A stretch of DNA of 64,000 nt from Escherichia coli. GTDB lineage: Bacteria; Pseudomonadota; Gammaproteobacteria; Enterobacterales; Enterobacteriaceae. The notes under the pieces are model-generated. The model saw only the letters and a program-made list of their open reading frames with translations. It did no database searches and had not been told where the DNA came from. This document shows, one piece after another, positions 1 through 35,003 of this stretch. Position 1 is the stretch's first letter; each line of letters starts with the position of its first letter. A program made the position numbers and the translations under genes. The stretch lies in assembly GCF_045037415.1 (NCBI RefSeq), contig NZ_CP173438.1. One strand, 5' to 3'.

Positions 1-72
1 GAAGGCAAAGCGCGGTTAACGACTGACCCCGTCAGCGGGCGGCGTGCGCGGTGTTCCGGTTTGACTCCGTGA
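1..72 (+). CDS. 3' fragment of an upstream phage gene (by position possibly terminase small subunit gpM)
   Basis: Open frame from window edge to TGA at 70-72, immediately upstream of gpL; too short to identify. Confidence 0.25.
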   Translation, partial: EGKARLTTDPVSGRRARCSGLTP

Positions 73-111
73 CCGTTTACACCGCGCACCCACCGCCCGA
101 TTTTTTCAGGA

Positions 112-615
112 GTGAACCCCATGAGTATGGTTGCCAGAACTAACCCCGGCCCCGCAGAGGACGACATCACCGACACCGATGATGGCGATACCCGTATTTC
201 AGCGGGTGCATTCTGGCCGGATATTGTGCTGCGCGAGCTGCGTCTGGCGGTACGACTGCCGGGCCGCGTGACCACCTCCCGCCTGCTGCATACCGCCACC
301 GGGGCCATAGCACACGTTACCCGCGAGCTGGAAGCATGGCAGCAGGAACAACAGGCGGCTGGCTATCAGACGCTGGCCGATGTTCCGGCCCCTGTAATTA
401 ACGGAGAAAGCGTCAATCTCTGGCACTGGCGCAATGCTGTTTATACCGCCACACGCGCCCTGATTCTGGAGCGTTACCGCGATGCGGACACAACGGACAA
501 GGGCGACCGCCGGGCGGACGCACTGGATATACAGACATCGGATTTGTGGCGCGATGTGAGCTGGGCCATCTCTGACATTCTGGGACGACCGCGAATGTTT
601 GCGGAGCTGTGCTGA
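112..615 (+). CDS. phage capsid completion / head stabilisation protein (P2 gpL-like)
   Basis: 167 aa ORF; size and position immediately before gpX and lysis genes match P2 L; sequence resembles gpL family from memory. Confidence 0.7.
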   Translation: MNPMSMVARTNPGPAEDDITDTDDGDTRISAGAFWPDIVLRELRLAVRLPGRVTTSRLLHTATGAIAHVTRELEAWQQEQQAAGYQTLADVPAPVINGESVNLWHWRNAVYTATRALILERYRDADTTDKGDRRADALDIQTSDLWRDVSWAISDILGRPRMFAELC

Positions 616-815
616 TGAAAGTGAAGGCACTGGAAGGCGACACCGTGGATTCGCTCTGTTTCCGGTACTACGGCACGACACAGGGCGTCACCGAAAAGGT
701 GCTGGATGCCAACCCCGGACTCTGTCAGCAGGTATTTCTGGACGCCGGGCAGGAAGTGGAGATGCCGGAGCCGGAGAAGAAGAAACGAGAAATGATTCAG
801 TTGTGGGGGGAGTAG
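609..815 (+). CDS. phage tail protein X (P2 gpX-like, LysM-like)
   Basis: 68 aa ORF overlapping end of L; conserved position and size of P2 X. Confidence 0.65.
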   Translation: MLMKVKALEGDTVDSLCFRYYGTTQGVTEKVLDANPGLCQQVFLDAGQEVEMPEPEKKKREMIQLWGE

Positions 816-817
816 CA

Positions 818-1141
818 GTGAGCACCATTCAAACAGGGATCACAGAGCAGGTTATTGCGTGGCTCTTTGACCACCTGCCAACGGTGTATGCAGTAGGCGC
901 GGCGGTCAGCATTTCCGCGCTGATGAGTCTTTATGACGGACGAACACTGGTTCAGACCGTAACGGGATCGCTGGCGTGCGGCGTTCTTGCCATGGCCGTG
1001 GCCGGGTCGCTGCGCTTCTTCGGGATCCCTGAGGATGCAGTGACGTTTTTTGGTGCCTCAATCGGTTTTATGGGCGCAGAGAAAGCACGCGACAAGGTTA
1101 TTGCAATATTTGATCGCAGGGTGAAGGAGAGGAACGAATGA
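818..1141 (+). CDS. putative holin
   Basis: GTG start right after X stop; ~107 aa with 2-3 hydrophobic segments (VYAVGAAVSISALMSLY, LACGVLAMAVAGSL, FFGASIGFM) and charged C-terminus; precedes endolysin. Confidence 0.5.
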   Translation: MSTIQTGITEQVIAWLFDHLPTVYAVGAAVSISALMSLYDGRTLVQTVTGSLACGVLAMAVAGSLRFFGIPEDAVTFFGASIGFMGAEKARDKVIAIFDRRVKERNE

Positions 1142-1530
1142 GCAACACATTTAAATTCAGCAGCCGGAGCGAAAAGAATTTGCAGGGTGTAAATCCTGAT
1201 CTGGTGAAAGTGACCCGACGGGCGCTGGAAATCTCGGAAGTGGATTTTGGTATCACCGAAGGATTGCGCAGTCGTTATCGTCAGAAGCAGCTCGTGACCA
1301 CAGGCAAGAGCCAGACCATGAACAGTCGCCATCTCACAGGGCATGCCGTGGATGTTGTGGCTTATGTCGGCAACCAGGTGTCATGGGAATGGCCGCTGTA
1401 CGAAAAAATCGCAGCAGCATTCAGACAGGCCAGCCAGGAACTGAATATTCCGGTGGAATGGGGCGGCGACTGGAAGACCCTGAAAGACGGACCGCATTTT
1501 CAGTTACCACACGGAGCCTATCCGGCATGA
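1138..1530 (+). CDS. endolysin, peptidase M15-type (L-alanyl-D-glutamate endopeptidase-like)
   Basis: 130 aa; N-terminal pattern (..VNPDLVKVTRRALEIS..DFGITEGLRS..) and H..D..H spacing typical of small phage M15 endolysins; ATGA overlap with holin and Rz. Confidence 0.7.
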   Translation: MSNTFKFSSRSEKNLQGVNPDLVKVTRRALEISEVDFGITEGLRSRYRQKQLVTTGKSQTMNSRHLTGHAVDVVAYVGNQVSWEWPLYEKIAAAFRQASQELNIPVEWGGDWKTLKDGPHFQLPHGAYPA

Positions 1531-1922
1531 AGCTCTGGCCCACGCTTGGCGTCGCTTTCCTTCTGATTACATCCATGCGTCTGTCGTGGTCGCTGGGCCG
1601 GGAGAACGCCAGAAACGAAGCGCAGGCCAGCACCCTGAAAAGTACCGTCGACACACTGAATATCATCAGCGCCGGGGTACAGGATATGCAGCAGGTGCTG
1701 GCTCAGCTCCGCGCGGAAAATCAGCAACGCAATCAGGACGGAGAGGTAAGACGTGAACAGCTACGCAACGATATTGCAAAAGATGAATGCGCCCACGCTT
1801 TGCCTGACGCTCGTTTTACTGACAGGTTGCGCAGGCACGCAGAACGCGCCAGGGCCAGCGCCGTCAGTCCGGCTTATACCGCAGACGCTGACCATGCCGG
1901 TAACGCCTCCCCCCTTCCCTGA
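1527..1922 (+). CDS. i-spanin (Rz / P2 LysB-like)
   Basis: 131 aa, N-terminal TM (LWPTLGVAFLLITSM) followed by coiled-coil-like charged region; overlaps endolysin stop. Confidence 0.6.
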   Translation: MKLWPTLGVAFLLITSMRLSWSLGRENARNEAQASTLKSTVDTLNIISAGVQDMQQVLAQLRAENQQRNQDGEVRREQLRNDIAKDECAHALPDARFTDRLRRHAERARASAVSPAYTADADHAGNASPLP

Positions 1923-2064
1923 CCCACCCACATGGGGAAACCTCGGAATATGGGGCGACCGCCTTCTGGATGCACTGGAAACCTGTAACGCGGATAAACG
2001 GGCCATTGCTGAACTGGATAAGAGAATAGCCGAACTGACACACCAGACGGGAGTAACACAATGA
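1753..2064 (+). CDS. o-spanin lipoprotein (Rz1 / P2 LysC-like), overlapping Rz in another frame
   Basis: Lipobox LLTGC after signal-like segment, proline-rich stretch (PVTPPPFPDPP); start may be ATG 1753 or 1783. Confidence 0.55.
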   Translation: MNSYATILQKMNAPTLCLTLVLLTGCAGTQNAPGPAPSVRLIPQTLTMPVTPPPFPDPPTWGNLGIWGDRLLDALETCNADKRAIAELDKRIAELTHQTGVTQ

Positions 2065-3938
2065 CCAGTAAGAACTTTGCACTGATTACAGCCATGACAC
2101 AGGCTGAACTGACTCAAAAGGTGAATGAACATCTTGCGAAAGGGTGGCATCTTCAGGGGGAGACGCGGGTTGCCTACGAACCCGGCACCCCGTGGTATCT
2201 AATGCAGGCAATGGTGGCCGATGGCACTACAGACATCTCACCTGATTCCCCCCAGCACGGCAGCGTGCCGGAGTGGTATTACGTGGTGGTACTTGCTGGT
2301 CAATCCAATGCCATGTCATATGGTGAGGGAATGCCGCTGCCGGATTCTTACGATGCGCCCCACCCACGCATTAAGCAACTGGCCCGTCGCAACACAGTGA
2401 CTCCCGGTGGTAAAGCATGCGCATTTAACGACATCATTCCGGCAGACCACTGCCTGCATGATGTTCAGGATATGAGCGCACTGAATCACCCGAATGCAGA
2501 CCTGAGCAAAGGGCAGTATGGCTGTGTCGGACAGGGCTTGCATATTGCCAAACGCCTGTTGCCTTACATTCCACAGAATGCCGGGATTTTACTGGTTCCA
2601 TGCTGTCGTGGTGGTTCGGCATTCACCCAGGGCGCGGAGGGGACATTCAGCGAGTCCACAGGAGCCAGTCAGGATTCGGCTCGCTGGGGTGTGGGTAAAC
2701 CTTTATATCAGGACCTGATTTTGCGCACGAAGGCCGCATTGCAGAAAAACCCAAAAAACATGCTGCTGGCCGTATGCTGGATGCAGGGCGAATTTGACAT
2801 GAGCGCCGCTACGTACTCACAGCAACCTCCGCTGTTTACGGCCATGCTGAAACAGTTTCGTGCGGACATTACCGAGTTTAACACGCAGTGTCATGGAGGC
2901 AGAGCGGCAAGTGTGCCATGGATTTGTGGTGACACGACGTATTACTGGAAAAACACCTACGGCACGCAGTACGACACCATTTACGGGGCGTACAAAAACA
3001 GGGAGAGCGACAACGTTTTCTTTGTGCCGTTCCTGACCGATGGTAGTGGCAACAATACCTCCACCAACGCACCAACGGAAGATCCGGATGCTGCAAGTGA
3101 GGGATATTACGGTTCGGCATCCCGAACGAACAAAAACTGGGTATCATCAAATCGCCAGACGCATTTCAGCTCATGGGCGCGTCGTGGCATTATTCCCGAT
3201 CGTATGGCAACCGCTATTCTGAACGTAGCCGGTCGCACCTTAGCCTTCATCAGTGGTAAGGCACCGGAAATCAAACCCTCGCCCGGCGGCGACACGCCAT
3301 CGGGGCCGTCTGAAGATGCATCCGTACGCACAATCTCCCTGTTGCCGACAGCCGGAGATGCTGCTGCGCAGGGCTGGAGCATTAAGAATGGCGGAATTCA
3401 GTTGTCAGAGGGTGTATTTAAGATCACCAAGCAGAGCAATAAAGCCTGGTCCCTGACGCGCCCGGTGGATGACGCAGTCTCCCTGCTGACACGGGGTGGC
3501 AGACTGAGCTGTAAGTTTCGACTGTCAGGCGCACTGACCAACAATCAGTTCGGTCTGGGAATTTATCTGTATACCGATGTAGCGTTACCTGACGTCGTGG
3601 CGATGACCGGGACTGGTAACCCGTTCCTGATGTCGTTCTTCACCCAGACCACAGACGGCAAACTGAATCTGATGCATCACAAGAAAGCAGGAAACACAAA
3701 GTTGGGCGAGTTCGGGAATTACAGTAACGACTGGCAGACGCTGGAGCTGGTGTTCACCGCCGGCAGTGCCACGGTTACTCCGAAACTGAATGGAGTGGCT
3801 GGCCCGGCATTCCAGGTCATAAAAGACAGTCTGACACTGGGGCTGAATGCGCTGACGTTAACTGATATCACTAAAAATGCCGCGTACGGCGTCGATATCG
3901 GCAGCCTGGTGCTGGAAATCAATAATCCCGCAGCATAA
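2061..3938 (+). CDS. prophage cargo protein: DUF1737-like N-terminal domain + SGNH/DUF303-type esterase (NanS-p-like putative sialate O-acetylesterase) + C-terminal beta-rich domain
   Basis: 625 aa; N-terminus ...ITAMTQAELTQKVNEHLAKGWHLQGE... resembles DUF1737; motif VVLAGQSNAMSYGEG resembles the GQSN block of SGNH/DUF303 esterases; located between lysis cassette and tail gene R, where P2 has no gene. Confidence 0.55.
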   Translation: MTSKNFALITAMTQAELTQKVNEHLAKGWHLQGETRVAYEPGTPWYLMQAMVADGTTDISPDSPQHGSVPEWYYVVVLAGQSNAMSYGEGMPLPDSYDAPHPRIKQLARRNTVTPGGKACAFNDIIPADHCLHDVQDMSALNHPNADLSKGQYGCVGQGLHIAKRLLPYIPQNAGILLVPCCRGGSAFTQGAEGTFSESTGASQDSARWGVGKPLYQDLILRTKAALQKNPKNMLLAVCWMQGEFDMSAATYSQQPPLFTAMLKQFRADITEFNTQCHGGRAASVPWICGDTTYYWKNTYGTQYDTIYGAYKNRESDNVFFVPFLTDGSGNNTSTNAPTEDPDAASEGYYGSASRTNKNWVSSNRQTHFSSWARRGIIPDRMATAILNVAGRTLAFISGKAPEIKPSPGGDTPSGPSEDASVRTISLLPTAGDAAAQGWSIKNGGIQLSEGVFKITKQSNKAWSLTRPVDDAVSLLTRGGRLSCKFRLSGALTNNQFGLGIYLYTDVALPDVVAMTGTGNPFLMSFFTQTTDGKLNLMHHKKAGNTKLGEFGNYSNDWQTLELVFTAGSATVTPKLNGVAGPAFQVIKDSLTLGLNALTLTDITKNAAYGVDIGSLVLEINNPAA

Positions 3939-3961
3939 GGAAGAGCAGGAGAGCAAAACAG

Positions 3962-4429
3962 ATGCTTAAGACAAACAGTCTGCGAGAGTCCATGCTTCAT
4001 GGGTGTCGGTGGTGCCAGGCTAATCCCGAGAAATTCACCATTTTCGTGGAGAGCGGCAACATTGAAACGACCGGAGAAGCGCCCTCGTTTGTTTACCGCT
4101 ATCAGATGGTGATGTTTGTCATGGATTACGCCGGAGAGCTGGACGACCTCACGCTGCCGCTGCTGGCGTGGTTATCCGAAAATCAGCCACAGTTGTTGCT
4201 CAATCCGGAGCGTAATCAGGACATCAAATTTTCTGCCGTTATCAATGACGATGACAGCGCCGATCTCCTGTTTACGCTCCCCCTGCGGGAACGCGTTCGC
4301 ATCACGCGCAACAGTCAGGGCACACCGCAGGCAGAACACCTGCCGGAGCCAAAACCCCGTCTGCCTTCTTCCGAAGGCGACTGGTCGCATGTATTCCAGG
4401 ATGTGACGTGGGGTGAAAGCGATGGATAA
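3962..4429 (+). CDS. phage tail completion protein (P2 gpR-like)
   Basis: 155 aa, position and size match P2 R. Confidence 0.7.
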   Translation: MLKTNSLRESMLHGCRWCQANPEKFTIFVESGNIETTGEAPSFVYRYQMVMFVMDYAGELDDLTLPLLAWLSENQPQLLLNPERNQDIKFSAVINDDDSADLLFTLPLRERVRITRNSQGTPQAEHLPEPKPRLPSSEGDWSHVFQDVTWGESDG

Positions 4430-5057
4430 GGCATTCACCCGCGTGGATGAAACCTTTGAGGCTATCCGCGACAGCCTGAATCAGCAGGCCATCAATAACA
4501 TCGCCAGAAAGCTGGCACAGGATTTACGTCGCGCCCAGCAGGCACGTATCCGGTCACAAAAAGCGCCGGACGGGACCGAATGGACACCACGCAGACGCCG
4601 CGTAACCCGGATACAGGAGCGCATTCGCTTTATCTGGAATAACGAAGCACGCACGCTGAAAAACTGGCATCACGACACAGGGAAATACGGGCGAACCATT
4701 ACCGGGTGGGATGAGGATAAAAACAATATCCGCACGTTTTACCGGGATGACATCGACCGTTTTCTGGAAATACGCACCCGGCGCATCAACCAGGACAGCA
4801 CAAAGCGCGTCCCCATGTTCGTAAAACTGCGCACCGCCCGCTACCTGAAAGCCCGTGCAGATGCCTCCGGTGTGACGGTGGGTTACAGCGGCGTGGCCGC
4901 ACGTATTGCACGCGTTCATCAGTTCGGTGAGCGCGATCAGGTTGCGCCGGGCATTTTCACCGATTACCCGGTACGTGAGCTGTTGGGTATCAGCCAGGCA
5001 GATGAGCGCCTGATTTATAACACGGTGCTGGGCCGGATTGCGGAGGCTGTACGGTGA
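4413..5057 (+). CDS. phage tail completion / virion morphogenesis protein (P2 gpS-like)
   Basis: 214 aa, overlaps R end, precedes V. Confidence 0.7.
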   Translation: MKAMDKAFTRVDETFEAIRDSLNQQAINNIARKLAQDLRRAQQARIRSQKAPDGTEWTPRRRRVTRIQERIRFIWNNEARTLKNWHHDTGKYGRTITGWDEDKNNIRTFYRDDIDRFLEIRTRRINQDSTKRVPMFVKLRTARYLKARADASGVTVGYSGVAARIARVHQFGERDQVAPGIFTDYPVRELLGISQADERLIYNTVLGRIAEAVR

Positions 5058-5635
5058 GCGCAGAACTCATGCGACTGCTGAGCAACATCATCCGCACCGG
5101 GATCATCTCTGAAGTTGATGAGAAGTCCTGGCGCGTGCGCGTTCGCAGCGGCGAACTGGAAACAGGCTGGTTGCGCTGGAACACCACGCGCGCGGGAGCC
5201 TTCAATGTGTGGCTGCCGCCATCACCAGGCGAACAGGTGGTAATTGCCTGCATTGGCGGCAACCCGGAAACCGCCATGATAATTGGCAGCCTGTGGAGTG
5301 ATGCCAGTCCGGCCCCCGGCAAAAGCCTGAAAGAAATCGTGGTCAGCGCGCCGGATGGCGCGGTGTTCCGCTACGACGCAGACGCTGGCGCACTGAGCGC
5401 CAGCGGCATGAAAACAGCCACCCTGCAGGCATCCGTCAGCGTGACACTGGATACGCCCGTCGTGGAATGCACAAACCTTCTGAGAACGGCGACGCTTGAC
5501 GTCACAAAAGAGGGAAAGATGAGCGGCAATATCACGCACAGCGGCGGCAATTTCACCTCAAACGGCATTACCGTGCATACGCATAAGCACGGTGGCGTTA
5601 AAGGTGGCAGCGATTCGACAGGAGGCCCGCAGTGA
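5054..5635 (+). CDS. baseplate assembly protein V (spike; P2 gpV-like)
   Basis: 193 aa, GTG start; gpV-like N-terminal OB region. Confidence 0.8.
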   Translation: MSAELMRLLSNIIRTGIISEVDEKSWRVRVRSGELETGWLRWNTTRAGAFNVWLPPSPGEQVVIACIGGNPETAMIIGSLWSDASPAPGKSLKEIVVSAPDGAVFRYDADAGALSASGMKTATLQASVSVTLDTPVVECTNLLRTATLDVTKEGKMSGNITHSGGNFTSNGITVHTHKHGGVKGGSDSTGGPQ

Positions 5636-34783: not shown

Positions 34784-34871
34784 GGTGAGGTGTCCGAGTG
34801 GCTGAAGGAGCACGCCTGGAAAGTGTGTATACGGCAACGTATCGGGGGTTCGAATCCCCCCCTCACCGCCA
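34784..34871 (+). tRNA. serW: tRNA-Ser (anticodon GGA)
   Basis: GGTGAGGTGTCCGAGTGGCTGAAGGAGCACGCCTGGAAAGTGTG...GGTTCGAATCCCCCCCTCACCGCCA: acceptor stem pairing, long variable arm, T-loop GGTTCGAATCC, 3' CCA. Confidence 0.93.
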
Positions 34872-34922: not shown

Positions 34923-35003
34923 CTGCCTGTACGGCAGTGAACTTGTCATTATTGGCAGACAGGATCCGCGGCAATTTCTAAGCTGCCTGTACGGCAGTGA
35001 ACT
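34923..35003 (+). repeat. two copies of a 21-bp direct repeat (CTGCCTGTACGGCAGTGAACT) spaced 60 bp apart downstream of serW
   Basis: Exact copies at 34923-34943 and 34983-35003; each contains short dyad CTGCC..GGCAG. Confidence 0.8.

Follow-up and report, generated by a model that had tools for sequence, protein, structure and literature searches.

The stretch of E. coli DNA analyzed here (64,000 nt, hereafter the window) carries, directly after a phage endolysin gene, two reading frames at 1527-2064 that share part of their sequence. A preliminary description read them as an i-spanin and an unusually long, lipobox-containing o-spanin in the overlapped arrangement of P2 LysB/LysC. This raises the questions of whether both frames are genuine spanin genes, where the o-spanin begins, and whether its length is out of the ordinary. 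With a high degree of confidence, we identify the locus as part of an E. coli prophage of the P88-like type (P2-related, Peduoviridae), in which it encodes a canonical two-component spanin with overlapped genes. The pair is an ordinary one of P2 type, already known and catalogued (Pfam LysC; lysC in RefSeq), and its biological import is small: the lysis function is textbook material, and the prophage that carries it is very common in E. coli.

Lysis cassette and prophage context

Pfam and PHROG scans gave the gene order gpL, gpX, holin, M15 endolysin, i-spanin, o-spanin, gpR, gpS, which is the order of both P2 and P88 (Table 1). The prophage is P88-like (Xuanwuvirus, Peduoviridae, P2-related), and its layout is that of the P2 late operon save for a cargo gene and a missing lysA. 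The stop codon of the endolysin overlaps the start of the i-spanin (ATGA). At the other end, the ATG of nanS-p overlaps the o-spanin stop (ATGA, 2061-2064); this cargo gene forms the 3' boundary of the spanin and is no part of it. The protein it encodes matches NanS (PDB 3pt5, 1.7e-125) and NanS-p (6yp6, 1.7e-29). A promoter and terminator scan of 1-5200 found nothing above shuffled expectation.

The DNA of this locus matches E. coli ST131 chromosomes, for example EC958, at 100% identity, and likewise the phages vB_EcoM-569R5 and vB_EcoM-705R2. Matches were found in 1,069 of 5,426 complete E. coli genomes, and the allele is present at ≥99% identity in ~248 E. coli records.

Table 1. Coordinates of the spanin genes, their internal features and the neighboring genes
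Feature	Position	Strand	Details and evidence
Head completion gpL	112-615		Pfam/PHROG scans
Tail protein X	609-815		Pfam/PHROG scans
Holin, first gene of the lysis cassette	818-1141	+	107 aa, GTG start; Pfam Phage_holin_3_1 4.4e-19; phrog_126 holin/anti-holin 1.4e-34
Endolysin, M15 metallopeptidase	1138-1530	+	130 aa; Pfam Peptidase_M15_4 4e-12; phrog_465 endolysin 3.7e-76
i-spanin	1527-1922	+	ATG start, 131 aa; phrog_214 "Rz-like spanin" 1.5e-39
i-spanin hydrophobic anchor, residues 3-17, LWPTLGVAFLLITSM	1533-1577	+	DNA and protein alignment, hydropathy
Shine-Dalgarno-like GGAGAGG	1740-1746	+	6 nt upstream of GTG 1753
o-spanin (LysC) precursor	1753-2064	+	103 aa from GTG 1753, alternatively 93 aa from ATG 1783; +1 frame relative to i-spanin
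DNA read in two frames	1753-1922	+	170 nt; 140 nt with start at 1783
Lipobox L-T-G-C, o-spanin residues 23-26	1819-1830	+	Rule-based scan; Cys codon 1828-1830
Mature o-spanin lipoprotein (predicted)	1828-2061	+	78 aa; Pro-rich extended N-terminal half (11 Pro), C78-N-x-D-K motif, C-terminal helix
Predicted long alpha-helix, o-spanin residues 61-99	1933-2049	+	AF2, 34-sequence alignment
Lineage-specific o-spanin tail, AELDKRIAELTHQTGVTQ	2009-2064	+	18 aa; alignment; megablast coverage ends at 2008
NanS-p-type sialate 9-O-acetylesterase, cargo gene	2061-3938	+	625 aa; Pfam DUF1737, SASA and DUF6645
Tail completion gene R	3962-4429	+	Pfam P2_Phage_GpR 1.4e-38
Tail completion gene S	4413-5057		Pfam/PHROG scans

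Two reading frames share the DNA of the spanin locus

An ORF scan and inspection of the raw sequence recovered both frames at the coordinates first proposed for them. A TAA lies immediately before the o-frame, which opens at 1750, ends at a TGA (2062-2064), and extends 142 nt beyond the end of the i-spanin. The two genes thus overlap within the lysis cassette, beside the holin and endolysin, as the genes of a two-component spanin do. An overlap of ~140-170 nt in different frames had been claimed, and we measured 140 or 170 nt, depending on the start, with the o-spanin in the +1 frame. As for the proposed 94-103 aa product, the upper figure stands for a start at GTG 1753, while the lower one needs correction, since ATG 1783 gives 93 aa. 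The ORF scan found no shorter embedded frame with a lipobox.

The o-spanin frame belongs to the LysC family and bears the mark of selection

We then compared the o-frame product with known families. It matches Pfam LysC (PF23793) with 50.8 bits against a cutoff of 27 (E=1.6e-13, model positions 2-66 of 69), the same model that P2 LysC matches at 6.2e-18, and it also matches phrog_3001 and phrog_456, both named "Rz-like spanin." A BLASTP alignment to P2 LysC spans 80 aa at 31% identity (E=5e-7) and pairs both the lipobox and the periplasmic cysteine. An exhaustive search of 1.84 billion representatives yielded 44 relatives. An alignment of 34 homologues has a single invariant column, Cys26; conservation reaches at least 90% at P43, L46, P53, C78, N79, D81, and K82. 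An NCBIfam scan of both spanins and NanS-p gave no meaningful match, and for two divergent LysC proteins whose encoding contigs were sought, nothing was on record.

Substitutions were counted in the region read as o-spanin only (1921-2007). In the o-frame, pS/pN was 0.38/0.097 against the relative L014 and 0.67/0.11 against L008; the pattern was reversed in both control phases, where changes were mostly non-synonymous. By these counts, purifying selection acts on the private part of the o-spanin in the o-frame.

A +1-frame ORF could in principle be a chance open frame that is never expressed, and the o-spanin is indeed left unannotated in most phage GenBank records. Set against this reading are the Pfam LysC match above cutoff, the homology to P2 LysC, a lipobox that is invariant across homologues of 25-50% identity, and the frame-specific purifying selection. 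A chance frame is, as far as sequence analysis allows, refuted, and we give it next to no credence. From the LysC family matches, the invariant lipobox cysteine, and the frame-specific substitution pattern, we infer that the o-frame is a real, selected coding sequence. The Pfam assignment, the alignment to P2 LysC, the invariant cysteine, and the selection on the private region likewise bear out the overlapped P2 LysB/LysC arrangement that the preliminary description had proposed.

Lipobox, mature protein, and predicted structure of the o-spanin

The precursor reads MNSYATILQKMNAPTLCLTLVLLTG, followed by the mature sequence CAGTQ... from the lipobox cysteine. The lipobox claimed for this frame is there, and it is conserved: a rule-based scan found a lipobox in 28 of 28 distant homologues. 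On the strength of the lipobox rule and this conservation, Cys26 is the predicted site of signal peptidase II cleavage and lipidation. The residue at +2 of the cysteine is Ala and not Asp, which fits the rule for sorting to the outer membrane. C78, at least 90% conserved, aligns with the cysteine of P2 LysC and provides the periplasmic cysteine.

The AF2 model of the o-spanin (mean pLDDT of 82) comprises a signal helix (4-28), an extended region (29-60), and a helix at 61-99, across which blocks score 87-95. The C-terminal 40 aa had been described as charged and coiled-coil-like. Their charge and helicity are borne out by 12 charged residues and the AF2 helix; the coiled coil is reduced to a heptad-like pattern in one register, the AF2 model being that of a monomer. 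When both AF2 models were searched against BFVD with Foldseek, there was no match at E≤0.001, as expected of proteins that are extended and non-globular; the best of the weak o-spanin matches were phage lipoproteins and O-spanins.

Start codon of the o-spanin and database gene models

Two start codons compete for the same mature product. GTG 1753 appears the likelier of the two, and we favor it because a Shine-Dalgarno-like site was found only there: the predicted anti-SD duplex is -7.9 kcal/mol at GTG 1753 compared to -1.1 at ATG 1783, -1.3 at CTG 1804, and -1.7 at ATA 1876, on a background in which 6% of positions in 1-5000 reach -8. The sole positive charge in the signal n-region, K10, is present only with this start; from ATG 1783, the n-region holds no K or R. 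The relative L008 retains the GTG but has ATA in place of the ATG.

A start at ATG 1783 would give a 93-aa precursor with a 15-aa signal peptide and the same 78-aa mature lipoprotein. ATG is the commonest start codon type, this one is conserved in most relatives, and in the distant relatives L015 and L006, internal ATGs would give canonical signal peptides. The Shine-Dalgarno stretch and the GTG are also kept in relatives, but they double as codons for the conserved i-spanin motif GE-x-RRE (invariant G72, E73, R75, R76, and E77), so their conservation can be explained by the coding constraint on the i-spanin, and we downgraded it as independent evidence for the start. Given the weak duplex at the ATG, the uncharged n-region, and the ATA in L008, we regard ATG 1783 as a secondary, rather doubtful candidate and keep GTG 1753 as the preferred start.

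The database models begin further downstream. In identical genomes, RefSeq names the two genes "DUF2570 domain-containing protein" and "lysC: Rz1-like lysis system protein LysC," with lysC models of 62 aa from ATA 1876; models of 87-89 aa from CTG (CTG 1804 here) occur in relatives. Taken at face value, this placement by PGAP in identical or near-identical genomes would make lysC a short non-lipoprotein. The ATA model, however, drops the signal peptide together with the invariant lipobox cysteine, and the CTG model leaves a signal of just seven residues. Neither codon has a Shine-Dalgarno site, and the RefSeq start varies among near-identical genomes, which points to automated placement. That these models are right is therefore highly improbable; they are almost certainly mis-started, at the cost of the signal peptide. 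The lysC problems in RefSeq and GenBank match the annotation problems tabulated by Kongari et al. (PMC6139136), who counted 64 o-spanins with a wrong start and 196 that had escaped identification. The coordinates of the preliminary description are better than those of the RefSeq models; the practical value of the case lies in annotation.

The o-spanin has an ordinary length for the overlapped class

The o-spanin had been called unusually long, and this did not hold up. At 78 aa, the mature protein is ordinary for the overlapped class, alongside P2 LysC (precursor of 96 aa, 76 aa mature) and the LysC proteins of KS14 and KL3 (precursors of 92-94 aa, 72-74 aa mature; PMC3091744). Among the 190 overlapped o-spanins in Table S2 of Kongari et al. 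(PMC6139136), mature length has a median of 70 (IQR 65-76, maximum 167), and 22% are at least 78 aa. For the 28 distant LysC homologues, the median is 72.5 and lengths run from 65 to 98. It is long only against the embedded class, such as lambda Rz1 with 40 aa mature (PMC6139136), and judging it against Rz1 was an error of comparator; the length of such an o-spanin is to be judged against its own class. The helical C-terminal part is a family trait as well and not peculiar to this protein, with 30 of the 76 residues of P2 LysC predicted helical (Kongari et al. Table S2, PMC6139136).

The i-spanin: anchor, fold, and family

The i-spanin is assigned by its phrog_214 match, and a BLASTP comparison with P2 LysB gave no significant similarity (E=2.3). 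There are weak reciprocal cross-matches, from the i-spanin to phrog_89, the P2 LysB family (3.4e-3), and from P2 LysB to phrog_214 (2e-4). We regard the protein as a functional analogue of P2 LysB that may also be a very distant homologue. Pfam DUF2570 scored it at 18.9 bits, under the cutoff of 26.6 (19.8 for the P88 allele).

K2 and R18 flank the hydrophobic residues 3-17, giving a predicted single N-terminal transmembrane anchor that fits the N-in, C-out topology of an i-spanin. This anchor has 15 uncharged residues where relatives and P2 LysB have 19-20, because of a 12-nt in-frame deletion. Compared to P88-type alleles, the deletion falls between nt 1568 and 1569 and removes AGWG/AAWG, so that the anchor has 15 residues versus 19; it is absent from all other alleles examined. 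The ~248 records at ≥99% identity probably all carry it, since a 12-nt gap is incompatible with that level of identity. The anchoring efficiency of a 15-residue segment is uncertain.

The AF2 model of the i-spanin (shallow alignment of six sequences; pLDDT of 82-94) has helices at 4-91 and 95-113 with a break at L-P-D, and residues 117-131 are predicted to be disordered, giving a periplasmic domain that is predicted to be mostly alpha-helical. Its one periplasmic cysteine, C88, is invariant in the protein alignment and, with C78 of the o-spanin, would be available for intermolecular disulfides.

We also considered a programmed frameshift that would fuse the two products, as suggested by the tail of the phrog_214 profile, which matches o-spanin residues 52-90. 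Fusion proteins of 160-174 aa do exist in databases but are rare. They need single-base deletions in an A4 run (1778-1781) and a C6 run (1909-1914) and often run on into a third frame, and this candidate was rejected; the pattern fits homopolymer assembly errors or pseudogenes.

Lineage-specific changes to the pair

Similarity to P88-type lysC stops at 2008/2009, the left junction of the nanS-p insertion. Judged from this alignment, the insertion has replaced the o-spanin tail. Across the LysC family, the tail after the CNxDK motif varies from ~10 to 40 residues, and that of L008 is shorter than the one in the window. In strain TUM9803, no alignment can be made over the N-terminal half of the i-spanin, and from the o-spanin Shine-Dalgarno site and GTG onward, identity climbs to ~77-85%; by this pattern, the interacting C-terminal module travels as a unit.

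The shorter anchor and the replaced tail could mean that the spanin pair is weakened or decaying in this prophage lineage. The anchor deletion is, after all, unique among the alleles examined, and phages can do without spanins in some laboratory settings, lysB and lysC of P2 being annotated as nonessential. Against decay, both ORFs are intact, the deletion is in-frame, and the allele is carried by the many E. coli records and the two phages noted above. Furthermore, the membrane signals of spanins serve only anchoring (PMC6139136), and tail length past CNxDK is itself widely variable in the family. We therefore consider weakening or decay unlikely, and we favor an ordinary overlapped spanin pair. 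Equally improbable, in our estimation, is the related idea that the ST131-associated allele is a functionally altered spanin by way of its 15-residue anchor and its nanS-p-replaced tail. If it were true, the efficiency or timing of outer-membrane disruption could change, and with it the release of phage and esterase from a widespread prophage.

Proposed mechanism

By analogy with the lambda Rz/Rz1 and P2 literature, the pair would act in the final step of lysis (spanin mechanism and definition of the overlapped architecture from PMC6139136 and PMC3091744). The i-spanin would sit in the inner membrane through the hydrophobic segment at its N-terminus, with its mostly helical domain reaching into the periplasmic space. 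The o-spanin is read in the +1 frame, GTG 1753 being its most likely start. After export, the signal peptidase II pathway would cleave and lipidate it at Cys26, and, in keeping with the Ala at +2, its destination would be the outer membrane. The two proteins would bind via their C-terminal parts and bridge the periplasm. Once the holin had permeabilized the inner membrane and the M15 endolysin had degraded the peptidoglycan, the spanin complex would fuse the two membranes and so disrupt the outer one. The observations above are all compatible with this course of events.

Comparison with known systems

Phages and prophages of the P88/Xuanwuvirus type are close relatives, with ~94-95% nucleotide identity over 1527-2008 and the same cassette of holin, M15 endolysin, and spanins. 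In the P88 annotation, gp32 is "DUF2570," and lysC is unannotated. The P88-type i-spanin has 135 aa and a 19-residue anchor, four residues of which the window allele lacks. The P88-type o-spanin has 106 aa, carries a different C-terminus of ~20 aa (ELLEQRRLQRLNNEDNNHAEN), and terminates within gene R, whereas the window has nanS-p inserted where that tail would run on, and its gene R begins only at 3962. A lysC stop inside R is a feature of P2 synteny and is unnecessary for function.

Lambda Rz/Rz1 also pairs a type II inner-membrane protein with a Pro-rich outer-membrane lipoprotein encoded by shared lysis-cassette DNA in different frames (PMC6139136). There, Rz1 lies wholly inside Rz and has 40 aa in its mature form, with 10 Pro (PMC6139136), while the window o-spanin runs past its partner and carries a long helix; the likeness drawn here is one of functional class. 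The Burkholderia P2-like phages KS14 and KL3, from another host clade and likened here by published description, have overlapped lysBC genes with the lysC start ~160 bp before the lysB stop (PMC3091744).

P2 LysB/LysC itself provides the model for the arrangement. In both, the pair follows the holin and endolysin genes and precedes tail genes R and S, and the o-spanin begins within the i-spanin gene, in the +1 frame, and extends past the end of that gene, with an overlap of 146 nt in P2 and of 140 or 170 nt here. The precursor lengths (96 aa in P2, 93 or 103 aa here) and mature lengths (76 and 78 aa) are similar, and both o-spanins belong to Pfam LysC with lipobox and periplasmic cysteine in register. 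The systems differ in that the o-spanins are just 31% identical and the i-spanin falls in PHROG 214 here versus 89 for LysB. Furthermore, lysA is absent here, the endolysin is an M15 peptidase and not P2 K, and the lysC stop overlaps nanS-p here and gene R in P2.

Annotation of the o-spanin and its relatives

The o-spanin gene lysC is unannotated in the GenBank records of phages P88, Chuche, 569R5, and Shae_phiSM, and RefSeq/PGAP places its start inconsistently among near-identical genomes. One model begins at an ATA codon, yielding a 62-aa product without signal peptide or lipobox; another begins at a CTG codon, yielding 87–89 aa with a 7-residue signal.

Public databases also hold 160–174-aa “fusion” proteins in which the i-spanin N-terminus runs into the o-spanin frame, and in some of them the sequence goes on in a third. 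Loss of single bases from an A4 and a C6 run explains these proteins, which are probably assembly errors. They are also the probable reason why the phrog_214 (Rz-like spanin) profile has a C-terminal tail that matches the o-spanin.

Features of the lysis region and the chromosomal part of the window
Feature	Sequence	Position	Strand	Remarks
i-spanin deletion	Window	1568/1569		Residues 14–15
A4 run	Window	1778–1781		
C6 run	Window	1909–1914		
lysC, RefSeq/PGAP	Window	1804–2064		CTG start
lysC, RefSeq/PGAP	Window	1876–2064		ATA start
lysC, RefSeq/PGAP	L001, related locus	3777–3965		
lysC, RefSeq/PGAP	L010/L011, related loci	890–1150/1159		
Lineage-specific o-spanin tail	Window	2009–2064		Last 18 codons
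Cargo gene	Window	2061–3938		625 aa; between lysC and tail gene R
o-spanin	L008, nanS-p carrier	2501–2812		Ends …AELDKK*
Lysis cassette	L014, E. coli TUM9803	982–1534		
tRNA-Ser(GGA)	Window	34784–34871		
CRISPR-DR4 repeat	Window	34975–35002	Minus	Single, isolated; Rfam, 50.1 bits

The lysis cassette is mosaic across relatives. E. coli TUM9803 carries a lysozyme and an i-spanin whose N-terminal half is unrelated, whereas the module is conserved from the o-spanin Shine–Dalgarno sequence and GTG onward. Citrobacter phage Shae_phiSM (L007) has the same spanins, but a GH108 endolysin replaces the M15 peptidase.

The i-spanin of the window differs from all other alleles examined by a 12-nt in-frame deletion, which costs its membrane anchor four residues (AGWG/AAWG) and leaves 15 uncharged residues, versus 19 without the deletion. 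This deletion appears specific to a group of at least 99% identity (~248 E. coli records, ST131 included).

Where the window is chromosomal, a CRISPR-DR4 repeat that looks like a lone remnant lies ~100 nt past a tRNA-Ser(GGA) gene.

The nanS-p insertion

The ATG of the cargo gene overlaps the o-spanin stop. Its product, with DUF1737, SASA esterase, and DUF6645 domains, matches E. coli NanS (PDB 3pt5, 1.7e-125) and the NanS-p C-domain (6yp6, 1.7e-29), and is thus a NanS-p-type sialate 9-O-acetylesterase. Because the nanS-p insertion junction falls within the o-spanin open reading frame, the last 18 codons are wholly unlike those of P88-type alleles. In a relative with nanS-p as well (L008), the o-spanin terminates still earlier; judged from these two alleles, the extreme C-terminal tail seems dispensable.

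P88-type phages lack such a cargo gene, which the window prophage has. NanS-p-type esterases are known from Stx lambdoid prophages, whereas the gene described here is located in a P2-like prophage.
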